A stretch of 46,488 nucleotides of DNA. Source: Candidatus Limnocylindrales bacterium (GTDB lineage: Bacteria > Chloroflexota > Limnocylindria > Limnocylindrales > CSP1-4). Of the stretch, positions 36,341 to 46,075 are shown piece by piece (the first letter of the stretch is position 1; each line of letters begins with the position of its first letter). The stretch is from NCBI GenBank assembly GCA_036393495.1, contig DASWGY010000230.1:1-46488 (forward strand), in the 5' to 3' direction. A program made the position numbers and the translations under genes. The notes under the pieces are model-generated. The model was not told the origin of the DNA and ran no database searches. It saw only the letters and a program-made list of their open reading frames with translations.

Positions 36341-39055
36341 ATGACGACAACCACGACCCTCGCCGACGACCCCCGCCGACTCCCGATCGAGATCGTCCTC
36401 CCGATCGAGGGCATGACCTGCGCGTCGTGCGTCAACCGGATCGAGCGCTTCCTGAAGAAGACGCCCGGCGTCGCGGAGGCGTCGGTCAATCTCGCCACGG
36501 AAAAGGCGACCATCCGCCTCGATCCGGTCATCGCCGGTCGCGCGGAGGCGGTGGCGGCCGTCCAGGCCGCCGGCTACGACGTCAAGGCAGAGGTCGTCCC
36601 CGCCGATGGCGTCTCGGGCGCCACGGCGTCGCTCGCCGACGAAGTCTCGGCCGAGGACATCGAGCGGGAGCGAGAGCAGCGCCACACCCTCATCCAGGCC
36701 GGCGTGTCGGTCGCGGCCGCGCTCGTCTTCATGGTCCTCATGTTCACGCCCCAGACGACGATCGCGATGGAGGACCTCAACAAGCTCATCCTGTGGCCGG
36801 CGACGCTCATCCAGTTCTGGGCCGGCGGTCGCTTCTACCGGGCCGCCTGGCGGGCCGGCCGGCACGGCGGGGCGACGATGGACACCCTGGTCGCGGTCGG
36901 GACGTCGGCGGCCTGGGGCTACTCCGTCTTCGTCGCGATGTGGCCCGAGGTGATCCACCTCGCCGGGCTCCATCCCGAGACGTACTTCGATTCGTCGGCC
37001 ATCATCATCGGGCTTATCCTCCTGGGGCGGTGGCTCGAAGCCCGGGCCAAGGGTCGGACAACCGGCGCGATCCGGCGGCTCATCGGCCTCCAGGCGACGA
37101 CGGCCAGGCGGATCCGCGACGGCGTCGAGGAGGACGTCGAGCTTGCCGTGGTCATCGCCGGCGACCTCCTCCGGGTCCGGCCGGGCGACAAGATCCCGGT
37201 CGACGGGGTCGTCGTCGAGGGCGCGTCCGCGGTCGATGAGTCGATGCTCACCGGGGAGCCCATCCCGGTCACGAAGTCGGCCGGCGACGAGGTCATCGGG
37301 GCGACCCTCAACACCTCGGGGTCATTCGTCATGCGCGCCGTCCATGTCGGACGGGACACGGCCCTGGCCCGGATCGTCGACCTGGTCCAGCGGGCCCAGG
37401 GCTCGAAGGCGCCGATCCAGCGCCTCGCCGACCGGATCAGCGAGGTCTTCGTCCCCGTCGTCCTCGTCGTGGCCGGCCTGACCTTCCTTGCCTGGTTCCT
37501 CGCCGGCCCCGAGCCGCGCGTGACCCTGGCCCTGACGGCATTCATCGGCGTCGTGATCATCGCCTGCCCCTGCGCCATGGGGTTGGCCACGCCGACGGCG
37601 ATCATGGTCGGGACCGGGGCGGGCGCCGAGGTTGGCGTCCTCATTCGCGGCGGCGAAGCGCTCGAGGGCGCGGGCCGGGTCGACGCCGTGGTCCTCGACA
37701 AGACGGGCACCCTGACGCTCGGACGGCCGGCGGTTGCGGCCATCATCCCGGCCGGCGGCCTCGATGAGCGCCGCCTTCTCGATCTCGTCGCCTCGCTCGA
37801 GGTCGGGAGCGAGCACCCGCTCGGCGAGGCGATCGTCCGCCACGCCCGCGAACAGGAGCTCGGCTTCCTGGCGGTCGAGGGCTTCGAAGCCGTGGCCGGA
37901 CGCGGGGTCCGCGGCCGGGTCGACGGCCACGAGGTCACGATCGGGAGTGGGCGCCTGGTCGGGGAGCTCGGGATCGATACCGCAGCATTGCGTGAGCGGG
38001 CCGAATCCGCCGCCTCCGACGGTGCCACCGTCTCGTGGGTCGCGGTCGATGGCGCCCTCGCCGGTCTGGTCGCGATCGCCGATCCGGTGAAGGCCGAATC
38101 GGCCGAGGCCATCCGCGAGCTCCGGGCGATCGGCCTCGAGGTCTGGCTCCTGACCGGAGACTCTCGCCTGACCGCGGAGTCCGTCGCCCGCCAGGTCGGG
38201 ATCCCGTCCGACCACGTGATCGCCGAGGTCCTGCCGGAGGACAAGGACGACGTGGTCGCGCGCCTCCAGGCGGAAGGCCGGAAGGTGGCGATGGTCGGCG
38301 ACGGCATCAACGATGCACCGGCCCTGGCGCGGGCCGACCTCGGGGTGGCCATCGGGACCGGCGCGGACGTCGCCATCGAGGCGTCGGACGTGACCCTCGT
38401 GGGTGGCGACCCGCGGCTCGTCGCCTCGGCGATCGGGCTCTCGAGGGCCACCATCCGGGTAGTCCGCCAGAACCTGTTCTGGGCCTTCGCCTACAACGTC
38501 CTCCTGATCCCGGTTGCGATGGGCGCGCTCTATCCCGCGCTCGGGATCACCCTCAGCCCGGCCCTCGCCGCCGGGGCCATGGCGATGTCGTCCGTATCGG
38601 TCGTGACGAACTCGCTCCGGCTCCGCTCGGTCGACGTCCGGCCCGGCCAGGTCCGGCCGCTTCGGCGCGGGCCACTGGGCCTCGTCCGCGACGCCGCGTT
38701 CCTGGTCGGCGTCGCCGCCCTCGGCCTGGCGATGGCCGCCGGGGTCTACGCGGCCGACCGGGCCATCGATGGCGCGAGCCAGAGCGTCCCGGTCACGGCC
38801 GAGGGCTTCCGGTTCTCGCCGGCCGAGGTCACCGTCCAGGCCGGCCGCTGGGTCGTGGTCGAGTTCACGAACGACGACGAGGTCGTCCACGACTGGATGG
38901 TCGAGGGCATTCCCAACGTCGACATCGCGGCCCGGCCGGGTCAGACCGCCCGCCTCCGCTTCGTCCTCGACGAGCCCGGCGAGTACATGATCATGTGCTC
39001 GATCCCCGGCCACGCCGAGGCCGGAATGGTCGGGCTCCTGACGGTCGAGCCCTAG
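36341..39055 (+). CDS. copA: copper-translocating P1B-1 ATPase with an extra C-terminal TM helix and a fused cupredoxin-like domain
   Basis: 904 aa with [22 protein letters not shown] ([13 protein letters not shown]), [23 protein letters not shown], and the TM7/8 motifs YN....P and MAMSSVSV. The tail has [21 protein letters not shown] (TM helix), then [10 protein letters not shown]...HDWMVE...[14 protein letters not shown]. Confidence 0.93.
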
Positions 39056-41939: not shown

Positions 41940-44591
41940 GTGCCGTCCCGGTTTCGGGTGACATCGGGCCGCAGGTCCGCCCCAGCGTTCAGCGTCCCGC
42001 ACGGTGGAGAGATCGCCGCCGCCGCGGGTCGCGTGCGGGGCGTCTCGATCCGACCGGCGGTCCGTGTCTGGACCCAGACCGTCGTGCTCGCTGCCGCGGC
42101 CGCGGCGATCTACCTGACGGCCCTCCGGGATCTTGCCGCGCCACAGCAGTCGTGGGTCTCGTGGCCCATGCTTGCCGCCGCCTTCGCGATCGCCGAGCTC
42201 AAGGTCGTCGAGGTCCACTTCCGGCGGGAGACGCACTCGTTCTCGCTGAGCGAGTTTCCGGCGGTCATCGGCTTCTTCTCGCTCGCCCCGGCTGACTACC
42301 TGCTGGCCGTGCTCGTCGGCTCGAGCGCGGCGCTCATCCTCCAGCCCCGCCAGCGCCTCATCAAGACCGCGTTCAACCTGGCGAACTTCATGTTCGTGGC
42401 CTCGCTGTCTCTGCTGATCGTGCGGTCGTTCGCCAGCATGGCCGCGACGCCGACGCCCGGCGACTGGCTCGCCGCCTTCGCCGCGACCCTCGCGGCGACC
42501 GTCGTGAGCGCCATGTCGATCGCCCTCGTCATCACGATGTCAGGGGGTGCGCCGCAGTTCGAGAAGCTGCCGGAGATGATCCGCTTCGGGAGCATGGTCG
42601 CCGTCGCCAACACCAGTCTGGCCCTCCTGGCGGTGGCGGTCATCCAGCGCGACCCGGCCCTCCTGTGGCTCCTCGTCCTGCCCCTCGTCATCGTCTTCCT
42701 GGCCTATCGCGCCTACCTCTCGGAGCGGGAGAAGCACGAGCGCCTGGAGCTGCTGTACCAGTCGTCCCGCATCCTCCAGCACTCCCCGGAGCTCGACTCC
42801 TCGCTCGTGGCCCTCCTTGGGCACGCCCGGGCGATGTTCCGGGCCGAGCTGGCCGAGGTCGTGCTCTATCCCCGGGACCTCGATGCGGAGGCGCTTCGGA
42901 CGAGCTCCTGGCATGACGGCGAGCCCGAGGTCATGGTCCCGGTGGCCGATTTCGGCGGGAACCCCTTTGCCGCGAGGGTTCGCGACGCCGCCGGGCCGTT
43001 CTTCTTCGAACCAATCGACGAGCCGCGGATCCGGCAGGCGATCGCCGCCCCGCTCCGGGGCGAGGTCGAGCTCATCGGGTCGCTGCTCATCGCCAACCGG
43101 CTGACCGAGGGGACGACCTTCAGCGACGATGACCTGCGCCTCCTCGAGACGCTCGCCAACCAGGTCGCGGTGGCCCTCGAGAACGGGCACCTGGAGCGGT
43201 CCCTGGCCGAGCTCTCCAAGTTGAAGGAACAGCTTCGCTACCAGGCCTACCACGACCCGCTCACCGGGCTGGCCAATCGGAGCCTGTTCGTGGAGCGGGT
43301 CGACGAGCGTCTCGAGACGACCTCCGGCGAGCGGATGCCGGTCGTGGTGTTCCTCGACCTCGACGACTTCAAGATCGTCAACGACACGCTCGGCCATGCC
43401 GCGGGCGACCGCCTCCTCATCGAGGTCGCGGAGCGGGTCCGGAGCGTCCTCCGAGACGAGGACCTGGCGGCAAGACTCGGTGGTGACGAGTTCGCGGTCC
43501 TGCTCGAGGACGGCCCCGACCTGGCGACCGGCATGGCCGTCGCCGAGCGGGTCGTCAGCTCCCTCCGGGTCGCGTTCCTGATCGCCGAGACGGAGGTCCA
43601 GGTCAGCGGCAGCGTCGGCGTCGCCGCCGCCCGGCTCGGGACCGAGCGGGCCGACGAGCTCCTCCGCAACGCCGACCTCGCGATGTACACGGCGAAGTCG
43701 AAGGGCAAGAACCGGATCGCCATCTTCGAGCCGACGATGCACGCCGCGATCGTCGCCCGCCATGAGCTGAGCGCCGAGCTCTCGCGGAGCCTCGGGCGCG
43801 GTGAGCTGGCCCTGCTCTACCAGCCGATCATCGACCTCCGGACCGGGAGCGCGATCGGCGCCGAGGCGCTCGTCCGGTGGCGTCACCCGACACGCGGATT
43901 GCTCGGCCCCAGCGAGTTCATCCCGCTGGCCGAGGAGACGGGCCTCATCGTCGCCCTCGGAGGCTGGGTGCTCGAGGAGGCCTGCCGCCAGGGGGCGGAG
44001 TGGTCGGCGCCAAACTCGCTCGGTCGACCCCTGACCGTGACCGTCAACCTCGCCGCCCAGCAGCTTCAGGAGGCCGACTTCGTCAAGGACCTCACGGCGG
44101 TTCTCGAGGCCACGGGCCTCCCTCCGGAGCAGCTGGTCCTGGAGATGACCGAGACGATCATCTTCCACGACACGATCGGCACGATCGCCCGCCTCGAGGC
44201 GATCCGGGCCCTCGGCGTGCGCATCGCCATCGACGACTTCGGGACCGGGTATTCATCGCTCGGCTACCTCCGCCGGTTCCAGGTGGACATCCTGAAGATC
44301 GCCCAGGAGTTCATCGGTCAGACGGACAGCCCCGAGGAGTGGCCGTTCGCCGCGGCGATCGTCGCCCTCGGACGGGCGCTCGGGATGACCATCGTCGCCG
44401 AGGGCGTGGAGGAGCCGGGCCAGCTTGCCCACCTCCGAGGATTGGGCTGCGAGCTGGGGCAGGGCTATCTGTTCGCGCCGCCCCTCCCCGCCGAGGAGGC
44501 CCGCCGCTACCTCCAGGAAAAGGCGCCGACCCGCGCGGGATCGGCGCGACGCGTCCCGACCGCCGGCCTGCTCGCGCCGGATGGCGCCTGA
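41940..44591 (+). CDS. membrane-anchored GAF-GGDEF-EAL protein (diguanylate cyclase/phosphodiesterase)
   Basis: I trimmed the 1351-aa track ORF to the GTG at 41940 after GGAGGAGGGAG. It has about 8 TM helices and a GAF-like region. The I-site RDED lies 5 aa before GGDEF. It also has EALVRW, DDFGTGYSSL and EGVE. Confidence 0.9.
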   Translation: MPSRFRVTSGRRSAPAFSVPHGGEIAAAAGRVRGVSIRPAVRVWTQTVVLAAAAAAIYLTALRDLAAPQQSWVSWPMLAAAFAIAELKVVEVHFRRETHSFSLSEFPAVIGFFSLAPADYLLAVLVGSSAALILQPRQRLIKTAFNLANFMFVASLSLLIVRSFASMAATPTPGDWLAAFAATLAATVVSAMSIALVITMSGGAPQFEKLPEMIRFGSMVAVANTSLALLAVAVIQRDPALLWLLVLPLVIVFLAYRAYLSEREKHERLELLYQSSRILQHSPELDSSLVALLGHARAMFRAELAEVVLYPRDLDAEALRTSSWHDGEPEVMVPVADFGGNPFAARVRDAAGPFFFEPIDEPRIRQAIAAPLRGEVELIGSLLIANRLTEGTTFSDDDLRLLETLANQVAVALENGHLERSLAELSKLKEQLRYQAYHDPLTGLANRSLFVERVDERLETTSGERMPVVVFLDLDDFKIVNDTLGHAAGDRLLIEVAERVRSVLRDEDLAARLGGDEFAVLLEDGPDLATGMAVAERVVSSLRVAFLIAETEVQVSGSVGVAAARLGTERADELLRNADLAMYTAKSKGKNRIAIFEPTMHAAIVARHELSAELSRSLGRGELALLYQPIIDLRTGSAIGAEALVRWRHPTRGLLGPSEFIPLAEETGLIVALGGWVLEEACRQGAEWSAPNSLGRPLTVTVNLAAQQLQEADFVKDLTAVLEATGLPPEQLVLEMTETIIFHDTIGTIARLEAIRALGVRIAIDDFGTGYSSLGYLRRFQVDILKIAQEFIGQTDSPEEWPFAAAIVALGRALGMTIVAEGVEEPGQLAHLRGLGCELGQGYLFAPPLPAEEARRYLQEKAPTRAGSARRVPTAGLLAPDGA

Positions 44592-44612: not shown

Positions 44613-45158
<546 letters not shown>

Positions 45159-45249
45159 CAACTCCCCCGAACATCCGGGCCGGCCAGTACCCATGGGCTA
45201 TGGCCGCGGCCACTCCAAGGTCCTAGGGTCGTCCCACGAGACGACGTCC

Positions 45250-45360
45250 GTCTCCAACGCACCGGGATCGTCCAGGGCAAACCCGTCGTGAGGCGGGGAC
45301 GCAAAGCCAGGGATCTCCAACGCGGAGACCGCCCGGCCGCCGAGATCGGGGCGATGGCAT
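45250..45360 (+). promoter_or_regulatory. c-di-GMP-I (GEMM-I) riboswitch aptamer
   Basis: 45273-45308 reads CAGGGCAAACC-CGTC-GTGA-GGCG-GGGACGCAAAGCC. Both conserved cores are present, separated by a 4-bp stem with a GNRA tetraloop at the same 12-nt spacing as the V. cholerae Vc2 aptamer. A P3-like hairpin has a TCTCC/GGAGA core at 45314-45328. Closing pairing is ATCGTC (45267-45272) with GGCGAT (45350-45355). Confidence 0.8.
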
Positions 45361-45381
45361 CCCGTCAGGGAAGGAGAACCC

Positions 45382-45471
45382 GTGAAGGCGAACCTGGCGC
45401 GCTTCACCTGGGCCATCATGCTGCTCGGCTCGATGGCTCTCACCGTTGGCGCAGGACTGCGCTGGTACTAG
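45382..45471 (+). CDS. candidate micro-ORF 1: 29-aa single-pass hydrophobic peptide
   Basis: The GTG lies 5 nt after GGGAAGGAGA. The product is VKANLARFTWAIMLLGSMALTVGAGLRWY. It was too short for the ORF track. Confidence 0.35.
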   Translation: MKANLARFTWAIMLLGSMALTVGAGLRWY

Positions 45472-45473
45472 CC

Positions 45474-45572
45474 GTGGATAAGCTCACGGCTATCCGCCTT
45501 CCTGTCTGCGTCGATCCCACGGCCATCGCGAGCCCGCCGATCGATCTCGATTCCGGGCACCGCTGGCGGTAA
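45474..45572 (+). CDS. candidate micro-ORF 2: 32-aa peptide starting 2 nt after the micro-ORF 1 stop
   Basis: GTG at 45474. The product is VDKLTAIRLPVCVDPTAIASPPIDLDSGHRWR. GC3 is about 79%. It is the 3' part of the track ORF 45288-45572. Confidence 0.2.
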   Translation: MDKLTAIRLPVCVDPTAIASPPIDLDSGHRWR

Positions 45573-45601: not shown

Positions 45602-45634
45602 CGACCGCCGGTCATCCGGCGGTCGTTCTGTCTT
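45602..45634 (+). terminator. intrinsic terminator
   Basis: CGACCGCCGG-tcat-CCGGCGGTCG, a perfect 10-bp stem, followed by TTCTGTCTT. Confidence 0.7.
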
Positions 45635-45708
45635 GGGGGCCGGGTCGGGGACCGGGTTTGGGGCCGGGTTGGGGGCCCGGGTTTGGGGGCCTGGTCTGGG
45701 GCCCGGCC
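45635..45708 (+). repeat. about six degenerate 12-13-nt tandem repeats (GGGGCCGGGTTT-like), strongly G-rich on the + strand
   Basis: The sequence gggggccgggtc ggggaccgggtt tggggccgggtt gggggcccgggtt tgggggcctggtc tggggcccggcc is read directly from the window. Confidence 0.65.
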
Positions 45709-45767: not shown

Positions 45768-45977
45768 GTGCGTAGCTCGAACGGCCTCGATCGCCGCCCC
45801 GTCGCCGTCGTCGTGACGAGCGATGGCCGACGCGTCCAGATGCCGATCGAGGACGGCGCGCTCGAGGTATCCCTTCTCTCCCTTATTCGCTCGCTCCTGG
45901 TCGGCATTGAGAGCCTCCTGGCCCTCATTACCGGCTCCCGGCGGGAGAACGGAGGAACGCGGAGGGACGAGCGCTAG
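45768..45977 (+). CDS. candidate small ORF / ilvB leader peptide (69 aa from GTG 45768, or 45 aa from ATG 45840)
   Basis: GC3 is about 83%, better than either antisense frame. The stretch 45861-45929 encodes LEVSLLSLIRSLLVGIESLLALI, in which 14 of 23 residues are L/I/V. It uses the rare codons CTT x2, ATT x3 and GTA. I see no convincing SD. Confidence 0.3.
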   Translation: MRSSNGLDRRPVAVVVTSDGRRVQMPIEDGALEVSLLSLIRSLLVGIESLLALITGSRRENGGTRRDER

Positions 45978-46006
45978 CGGCGCGACGCACCACCGAAGAC
46001 CAACGG

Positions 46007-46039
46007 GACCCTCGCCGGGTGGCGAGGGTCTTCTTGTTT
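46007..46039 (+). terminator. intrinsic terminator 36 nt upstream of the ilvB start (candidate attenuator)
   Basis: GACCCTCGCC-gggt-GGCGAGGGTC, a perfect 10-bp stem, followed by TTCTTGTTT. Confidence 0.7.
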
Positions 46040-46075
46040 GATCGGGACCGACACGAAGACGAGGGACGACGAGCG

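Follow-up and report, generated by a model that had tools for sequence, protein, structure and literature searches.

An RNA that is, by its sequence, a canonical c-di-GMP-I aptamer lies in the leader of a short micro-ORF transcript in the 46,488-nt stretch of Candidatus Limnocylindrales DNA analysed here (hereafter, the window). It is built on the GC-rich scaffold common to the GGC variants of the class without being one of them, and binding of c-di-GMP probably controls the translation of the two micro-ORFs that follow, ORF1 and ORF2, with a weak leaning towards an ON switch. The riboswitch call itself adds little, since this is a textbook class that Rfam finds automatically; the added value over the known class lies in the micro-ORF cargo, in the link with DUF5317 and a GGDEF-EAL enzyme, and in the uncultured phylum that hosts it.

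The whole window returned a single Rfam match by cmscan, located at 45267-45345 on the forward strand and spanning the full-length model (63.3 bits, E 9.5e-13). The same 63.3-bit match was recovered when cmscan was repeated on 1 kb, and the match is far beyond chance. The best model at this position is RF03167 (c-di-GMP-I-GGC; gathering score 59 bits), and a second, lower-scoring family of the same clan was also above its own gathering score in the window. The Rfam scan was extended to 17 related loci (18 aptamer copies), where RF03167 ranked on top in 16 of the 18 copies, with 60.3-69.1 bits. RF01051, whose gathering score is 35 bits, was the best model in L031 (54.1 bits) and L034 (53.5 bits), and these scores imply that the canonical threshold is cleared by about 20 bits in the family. 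A first-pass annotation of this DNA had called a GEMM-I (c-di-GMP-I) aptamer upstream of the GTG codon at 45382, and had suggested scoring it against RF01051. The aptamer does lie in a 5' leader and shares its strand with this GTG; the assignment is borne out by the Rfam match and by the covariation described below, and the RF01051 threshold is passed indirectly, through the same-clan family in the window and the two relatives just mentioned.

The pocket bases G45276, A45303 and C45340, which correspond to G20, A47 and C92 in the Vc2 numbering of the crystal structures, showed no variation in 49 relatives. The corresponding conserved block reads GGGACGC-G-AAgCC in the RF03167 consensus and GGGACGC-A-AAGCC in the window and in all 49 aligned relatives, the A after ACGC being the single mismatch in that block of the RF03167 alignment. 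The letters "GGC" presumably denote positions 20, 47 and 92, as the model consensus suggests; the G expected at position 47 is absent from the window and from 49/49 relatives. Similarly, the A at position 20 that defines the c-AMP-GMP riboswitch (GEMM-Ib) was not found, 45276 being G here as in all relatives. With G20, A47 and C92 all canonical, the name GGC misleads in this case, and the ligand to be expected would be c-di-GMP.

Comparisons were made with 80 related loci fetched by a genome scan with the upstream DUF5317 gene. Essentially all of them are from MAGs of Chloroflexota ('Chloroflexia', Ca. Limnocylindrales, Ca. Limnocylindria), although some contigs, few in number, are probably mis-binned, and the relatives of the window DUF5317 protein are all metagenomic. 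The window, at about 71% GC, belongs to the Chloroflexota, class Ca. Limnocylindria, order Ca. Limnocylindrales; the Actinobacteria-like host supposed earlier was an understandable guess, but a wrong one. The aptamer is present in 59 of the 80 loci: a motif scan found it in 48, with two copies each in L030 and L060, and about 10 further loci carry slightly diverged copies. GEMM-I, described in the first-pass annotation as much rarer in genomes of this kind, is thus a conserved module here. Ca. Limnocylindria is an abundant, uncultured, high-GC class of soil and freshwater Chloroflexota in which no experimental c-di-GMP biology is known. A literature search for c-di-GMP riboswitches in Chloroflexi, or for any controlling a small ORF, gave nothing relevant.

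The first aptamer core, CAGGGCAAACC (45273-45283), and the second, GGGACGCAAAGCC (45296-45308), are separated by a hairpin reading CGTC / GTGA / GGCG (45284-45295). These motifs, together with the 10-mer repeat, the GGAGA pair and the GTG codon that had also been listed, all lie where they were first reported. The sequence quoted alongside them as the Vc2 aptamer is presumably that of Vc2, and a literature search for it was without result. Two details of the fold needed correction. P2, described as a 4-bp stem, has 6 bp plus the G21-C46 and C22-G45 pairs. The closing helix proposed at 45267-72 / 45350-55, of which no more than 9 of the 49 relatives keep 5 or 6 of the 6 pairs, gives way to the P1 register listed in the table. 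The segment 45350-57 more plausibly lengthens P1 by pairing with 45254-60, as in the centroid fold of the window.

The fold was counted in the Rfam register on a 49-sequence alignment. Paired cells amounted to 86.5%, as compared with 28-47% when the 3' partner was slid by 1-3 columns, and changes on both sides were observed at 10 pairs (85 cells). Both P1 and P3 covary strongly; none of 500 shuffles matched the covariation score. The third pair of P1 (t=2) occurs as UA in 21 copies, CG in 15 and UG in 9, and the fourth pair covaries as well. Cognate P1 strands paired at -9.15 kcal/mol, as against -7.0 kcal/mol for non-cognate ones (p < 2e-4, kinship ignored), and P1 was not recovered by unconstrained thermodynamic folding alone. 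The distal P3 stem is variable with compensation (UCUCC/GGAGA, CCUCC/GGAGG, UCUUC/GAAGA, CUUGG/CCAAG), while the loop capping P2 reads GYGA in relatives, its two G and its A being invariant. The diverged copies add a compensated C-G to U-A change in P2 (L007 and L066) and compensated changes at the base of P3.

Table 1. Features of the riboswitch unit and of the genes upstream of it, in window coordinates.
Feature	Position	Strand	Basis or remark
Membrane GAF-GGDEF-EAL gene (start approximate)	42000..44591	+	Pfam EAL 4e-69, GGDEF 6e-44, plus GAF
DUF5317 membrane protein gene, directly upstream	44613..45158	+	Pfam PF17248, E 3.3e-29
Putative -10-like element TAGGGT (TAnnnT)	45224..45229	+	Conserved block in relatives
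P0, 5' leader hairpin, GAGACG / loop ACGUC / CGUCUC	45238..45254	+	Relatives, MFE fold
c-di-GMP-I aptamer	45264..45347	+	Rfam match, covariation, invariant G/A/C triad
P1	45264-70 / 45341-47, extendable to 45254-70 / 45341-57	+	Rfam register, covariation
P2	45277-78 / 45301-02 plus 45282-87 / 45292-97	+	Rfam-register structure
P2 loop GUGA	45288-91	+	GNRA tetraloop
P3	45305-18 / 45324-38	+	Rfam-register structure
Linker hairpin UCCC / GUCA / GGGA	45360..45371	+	Abuts/occludes 5' part of Shine-Dalgarno
Shine-Dalgarno AAGGAGA	45371..45377	+	4 nt 5' of GTG
ORF1, 29 aa, MKANLARFTWAIMLLGSMALTVGAGLRWY	45382..45471	+	Purifying selection, conserved after aptamer
ORF2, 32 aa, MDKLTAIRLPVCVDPTAIASPPIDLDSGHRWR	45475..45572	+	Paralogue-like micro-ORF
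Intrinsic terminator CGACCGCCGG / UCAU / CCGGCGGUCG, then UUCUGUCUU	45602..45634	+	Terminator scan

Upstream of the aptamer, a TA[ACG]nnT block is common to the relatives at about 50 nt from its 5' end. A full promoter was not found by a simple sigma-70 scan, so that the -10 element is putative and, the promoter evidence consisting of a -10-like motif, read-through from the upstream DUF5317 gene is possible. The P0 hairpin begins about 8 nt after the TAnnnT block, is seen in the MFE fold of the window and has at least 5 bp in 45 of 49 relatives, with differing stems (GAGGACG/CGUCCUC, CGGAC/GUCCG, GGGAC/GUCCC); the upstream TCTCC is its 3' arm and covaries with its own 5' arm. The 10-mer TCTCCAACGC occurs at 45251-45260 and again at 45314-45323, and GGAGA both at 45324-45328 and at 45373-45377. 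The repetition of the 10-mer, to which attention had been drawn earlier, is thus real but specific to the window: in 48 relatives the longest substring common to leader and P3 measures 3-8 nt.

Between the aptamer and ORF1 the terminator scan retrieved no terminator-like site, making a usual transcription-termination switch unlikely. All relatives carry a purine-rich motif of the GAAGGRG type 4-9 nt before the start codon. The mean unpaired probability of the Shine-Dalgarno (SD) sequence was 0.38 in 49 relatives, compared with 0.55 when the linkers were shuffled, and accessibility was below the shuffled-linker level in 40 of the 49 (Wilcoxon 3.5e-8, kinship ignored). The missing terminator and a local hairpin occluding the SD make translational control of ORF1 likely, and we infer it with moderate confidence.

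Downstream of every complete aptamer copy, GTG-AAR occurs at a constant spacing and opens an ORF of 28-35 codons. In the window this is ORF1, which starts from the GTG at 45382, on the aptamer strand; its product begins with a basic segment, continues with a single hydrophobic helix and the small residues GAG, and closes with a short tail ending in RW (GAGxRW). In 49 copies, no indel was observed over 28 codons, pN/pS was 0.41 in the ORF1 frame and 0.94 and 2.27 in the two others, and variability at codon positions 1, 2 and 3 was 0.16, 0.08 and 0.30, respectively. ORF1 is thus genuinely protein-coding, and the selection acting on it is purifying. Codons 2-8 show almost no synonymous variation and synonymous change is free from codon 9 on; indeed, Leu5 is CTG in 44 of 46 copies (background 45%), while at Leu15 and Leu20 CTC and CTG occur about 50:50. 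The size of this GTG ORF, 29 codons, had passed without remark in the first-pass annotation.

ORF2 accompanies ORF1 in 43 of 49 units and usually starts from a GTG inside the CGG-TGG of ORF1, overlapping its R-W codons. It is often kept only at the C-terminus, as [IVL][DE][AS][GW][HQR]RW, and its hydrophobic copies align to ORF1 free of gaps (e.g., KAQAFRVLMVLSTLASSALVIEAGQRWK versus KANLARFTWAVALLASMALTIGAGMRWY). For the Arg that precedes the final Trp, 42 of 43 copies use CGC, whereas the third base is free to vary in the adjacent codons. The end segment of ORF2 (..CCGCUGG) mimics the 5' arm of the terminator, and its pairing with the 3' arm, CCGGCGG, is possible in about 28 of 43 loci; the terminator of L032 is without this complementarity. 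The terminator of the window is strong; the same stem, (A/G)CCGCCGG...CCGGCGG, recurs 3' of ORF2 in relatives and, as the next gene is convergent in L034, the unit is self-contained. Neither peptide matched a family in Pfam or NCBIfam, even at E <= 10. In architecture only, ORF1 is similar to small membrane peptides or to signal-peptide-like pro-peptides, and the products of both ORFs are probably small peptides, in the membrane or exported, with a link to DUF5317 and to the c-di-GMP enzyme nearby.

The GAF-GGDEF-EAL protein has intact GGDEF, RxxD and EAL motifs in its translation. The order of genes is kept as leuDC (on the minus strand), GAF-GGDEF-EAL, DUF5317, riboswitch unit and, further on, ilvB, the remaining neighbours being unrelated housekeeping genes; synteny of ilvB extends to at least 34 loci, and this gene apparently has its own leader and terminator. 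The unit and GGDEF-EAL occur together in 57 of 80 loci, the unit alone in 2, GGDEF-EAL alone in 1 and neither in 20 (Fisher 1e-15 over 80 loci, a count confounded by phylogeny). The unit keeps to this neighbourhood while its position shifts: in L014, L036 and L059 it precedes GGDEF-EAL, and in L042 it lies between the GGDEF-EAL and DUF5317 genes. A role of the unit as leader or attenuator of the downstream ilvB was considered and discarded, a convergent 739-aa gene lying in between in L034.

As for DUF5317, a profile search against PDB sequences retrieved nothing, the AlphaFold2 model (pLDDT 74.7) had no Foldseek match in PDB better than E = 4, a literature search found no mention of the family, and an exact-sequence look-up of the window protein gave no record. 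The idea, suggested by a motif resemblance, of an LspA-like (signal-peptidase-II-like) intramembrane peptidase processing ORF1 and ORF2 was dropped as unsupported; hhalign against a hand-entered E. coli LspA sequence returned a probability of 2.4%.

In the mechanism that we favour, a self-contained transcript of about 400 nt, with predicted ends at about 45236 (5') and 45634 (3'), would comprise the putative -10 element, P0, aptamer, SD, ORF1, ORF2 and intrinsic terminator, and c-di-GMP binding would govern translation initiation at ORF1, and ORF2 by coupling, and not transcription termination. Without ligand, the 3' strand of P1 and the 5' strand of P3, GCCAGG, would pair with the spacer, the start codon and the early coding region; P1 and P3 locked by the ligand would free these segments, turning expression ON, with the ORF1 and ORF2 peptides as the regulated output.

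Several observations are consistent with such pairings. The 3' strand of P1 matches the spacer/start region in a cognate-specific manner (p = 0.006, kinship ignored), and the sequence of the spacer is often similar to the 5' strand of P1, as in GAUCG-UG or GACCG-UG. In addition, CCUGGC at 45393-98, within ORF1 codons 2-8, is fully complementary to GCCAGG (45306-11), the invariant 5' strand of P3, and this pairing is used in unconstrained MFE folds. With P1 enforced, the opening energy of the ribosome binding site (SD to start) was 1.5 kcal/mol lower, decreasing in 26 of 49 relatives and increasing in 4; in aptamer/platform chimeras it fell by 0.54 (p = 0.018 versus cognate, kinship ignored). 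When the whole aptamer was enforced, the difference between cognate and chimera was gone (p = 0.26), and in this window enforcing P1 alone raised the opening energy by 1.7 kcal/mol. The accessibility of the SD itself did not change upon enforcing P1 (0.36 versus 0.37). The ON direction is therefore held weakly, considering the lost chimera control, the +1.7 kcal/mol of the window, an alternative GGGG/UCCC pairing and tests that ignore kinship; for this window alone it is ambiguous. Two candidate anti-sequestors were rejected, namely the anti-SD arm pairing with aptamer strands, which gave no cognate-specific signal, and the CCUCC of P0 as a conserved anti-SD, for which non-cognate pairs were equally good and which is missing in some subgroups.

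Four other explanations have to be weighed against a canonical aptamer controlling ORF1 and ORF2 translation. Membership in the variant class RF03167, with an altered pocket and hence probably a ligand other than c-di-GMP, would agree with the ranking of that model, best in the window (63.3 bits versus 59) and in nearly all the related copies scanned (16 of 18). These scores reflect the common GC-rich scaffold (6-bp P2, short P3) and not the defining base, and the G conserved at position 47 in RF03167 is A in the window and in its 49 relatives, with G20 and C92 canonical too, which makes this reading most improbable. The switch originally proposed in the first-pass annotation, in which the UCUCC of P3 (45314-18) or the one upstream (45251-55) would alternate between GGAGA at 45324-28 and the SD at 45373-77, appears distinctly improbable. 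The mutually exclusive pairings do exist in the window, and the P3 5' arm pairs with the SD region at -7.9 kcal/mol (family mean -5.6), but the elements are not conserved: the upstream UCUCC is a P0 arm covarying with its own partner, relatives of the L008 type have a P0 without any CCUCC, the P3 arm varies (UCUCG, UCUUC, CUUGG, UCUGC) without matching changes in the SD (p = 0.17), and the 10-mer repeat is missing from 48 relatives.

An OFF switch with the same aptamer and cargo, or Rho-dependent termination or mRNA decay in place of ribosome access, is possible, though we consider it less probable than control weakly in the ON sense. The GGGG at 45348-51 may pair either in the extended P1 (centroid fold) or with the UCCC at 45360-63 (window), so that formation of the extended P1 would leave UCCC free for the GGGA of the SD region; the opening energy of the window is higher under an enforced P1, and in most relatives the SD hairpin is present whatever the state of P1. 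On the contrary, the anti-SD arm showed no cognate-specific complementarity with any aptamer strand (p = 0.70-0.99), and the family-wide shift in opening energy goes in the opposite direction (26 down, 4 up). Finally, the RNA of about 400 nt could be a small RNA that responds to c-di-GMP, or could belong to the GGDEF-EAL/DUF5317 operon as a 3' or intercistronic element, with translation of the ORFs serving regulation only, for instance a translation-coupled control of the terminator. The conservation of ORF2 only in its last six codons, the nearly fixed CGC, the possible pairing of the ORF2 end with the terminator 3' arm and the nucleotide-level constraint on ORF1 codons 2-8 would suit such a role. 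It is nonetheless improbable in view of the protein-level purifying selection over all 28 codons of ORF1, with synonymous change free from codon 9, of the alignment of ORF1 and ORF2 as paralogous peptides, of the L032 terminator lacking the complementarity and of the convergent gene in L034, which may leave nothing downstream to read into.

Starting from the favoured model of translational control, it is conceivable, albeit tentative, that c-di-GMP directly gates, via the riboswitch, the synthesis of two peptides of about 30 residues, each with a conserved xG-x-R-W end, that act with the adjacent GAF-GGDEF-EAL enzyme and the uncharacterised membrane protein DUF5317; such peptides might be small membrane regulators or exported signals, feeding back on c-di-GMP turnover. 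If true, Ca. Limnocylindria would have a kind of c-di-GMP output module not described before, and DUF5317 would gain its first functional context. The riboswitch marks two unannotated conserved micro-ORFs and DUF5317 as likely members of the c-di-GMP regulon of Ca. Limnocylindria, and using riboswitches as guides to small proteins is of value, since gene callers usually overlook ORFs of this kind. It also follows that best-hit Rfam annotation labels a whole lineage of aptamers with a canonical pocket as 'c-di-GMP-I-GGC'.

Among known systems, Phr-type pro-peptides, type I toxins and MgrB-like membrane regulators share with ORF1 a basic N-terminus, a single hydrophobic helix, the GAG residues and a conserved tail, a likeness that would be architectural only, ORF1 having no sequence-family match. 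The characterised translational or terminator-type switches of Firmicutes, Bc1/Bc2 of Bacillus thuringiensis and Cd1 of Clostridioides difficile, likewise have the aptamer in the leader of a c-di-GMP-linked transcript; they have intrinsic terminators, long expression platforms and large genes (adhesin, flagellar operon), whereas the window has no terminator before the ORF and a micro-ORF cargo. Related literature includes PMC4933901 and PMC11218506. RF03167 has almost the same scaffold as regards the length of P2, the layout of P3 and the sequences at the junction, the defining G47 being A here. With RF01051 members such as Vibrio cholerae Vc2, the window aptamer shares the three-helix architecture, the invariant GGCAAACC and GGGACGCAAAGCC cores, the GNRA loop on P2, the G20/A47/C92 contacts and the location in a 5' leader. 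It differs from them in its GC-rich 6-bp P2, GYGA loop and long extendable P1, in a short and variable P3 without an obvious 11-nt receptor, in its Ca. Limnocylindria host and in its cargo, which consists of two ORFs of about 30 codons instead of a gene of normal size.

Across the window and the related loci fetched via the DUF5317 gene, codons 2-8 of ORF1, the first micro-ORF of the riboswitch unit, are nearly without synonymous variation, with Leu5 written as CTG in 44/46 copies, Ala6 as GCG in 37/44 and Arg7 as CGC in 41/48; Leu codons further on in ORF1 are divided between CTC and CTG at about 50:50. These early codons contain the motif CCUGGC, the complement of the invariant GCCAGG of the aptamer. 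At the other end of the coding region, the Arg codon that precedes the final Trp of ORF2 is CGC in 42/43 copies, against a background of 31%, and the third base of the adjoining codons is freely variable. The ORF2 segment ..CCGCUGG resembles the 5' arm of the terminator, (A/G)CCGCCGG, both in the window and in the related loci, and can base-pair with CCGGCGG, the 3' arm. The constraint on the Arg codon CGC and on the ..CCGCUGG segment is at the nucleotide level.

Coordinates of the features discussed in the window
Feature	Position	Strand	Remarks
Heavy-metal P-type ATPase	36341-39055	+	HMA, E1-E2 ATPase and hydrolase domains
Conserved non-coding block	45159-45223
Aptamer GCCAGG	45306-45311		invariant
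ORF1 codons 2-8	45385-45405
ORF2 end compared	45558-45572
Terminator segment compared	45602-45625
G-rich tandem repeat	45633-45706		period 12, 5.5 copies; also scores as period 26
Leu/Ile/Val-rich ORF	45840-45977		45 codons
Terminator before ilvB	46005-46040		12 bp
ilvB start codon	46078		ATG

At the C-termini of the two peptides, GAWMRW replaces GAGMRW in ORF1 and ESWHRW replaces E(A/S)GHRW in ORF2 of loci L020, L028 and L077, the same Gly-to-Trp change therefore occurring in both peptides of each genome.

The unit also varies in number and position among the related loci. A tandem pair of complete riboswitch units, spaced by ~530-545 nt, is present in L030 (4715, 5259) and L060 (4711, 5238); each unit of L030 has its own ORF1 copy, and the second unit of L060 is cut by the end of the locus. 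The unit lies 5' of the GGDEF-EAL gene, and not 3' of DUF5317, in L014 (724), L036 (762) and L059 (753), and between the two genes, 3' of GGDEF-EAL and 5' of DUF5317, in L042 (3607). In these four loci gene order is altered and the neighbourhood of the unit is retained. A Limnocylindria-type DUF5317 locus was also found on contigs labelled Patescibacteria, Methylomirabilota and Gemmatimonadales (L023, L027, L035, L044), with the riboswitch at the last three; these contigs were probably mis-binned in the source MAGs.

Immediately 3' of the DUF5317 stop codon and 5' of the -10-like TAGGGT, a conserved non-coding block (CAACTCCCCCGAAC ... GGTAC ... CAT) could represent a -35 or activator site, or a further RNA element. 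On the opposite side, a G-rich tandem repeat of GGGGCCGGGTTT directly adjoins the terminator of the unit. Further downstream, an ORF (..LEVSLLSLIRSLLVGIESLLALITG..) with rare CTT/ATT codons is followed by a terminator shortly before the acetolactate synthase gene ilvB, the two forming a candidate branched-chain amino-acid attenuator. Elsewhere in the window, the heavy-metal P-type ATPase carries a cupredoxin or plastocyanin-like domain at its C-terminus, an unusual fusion.
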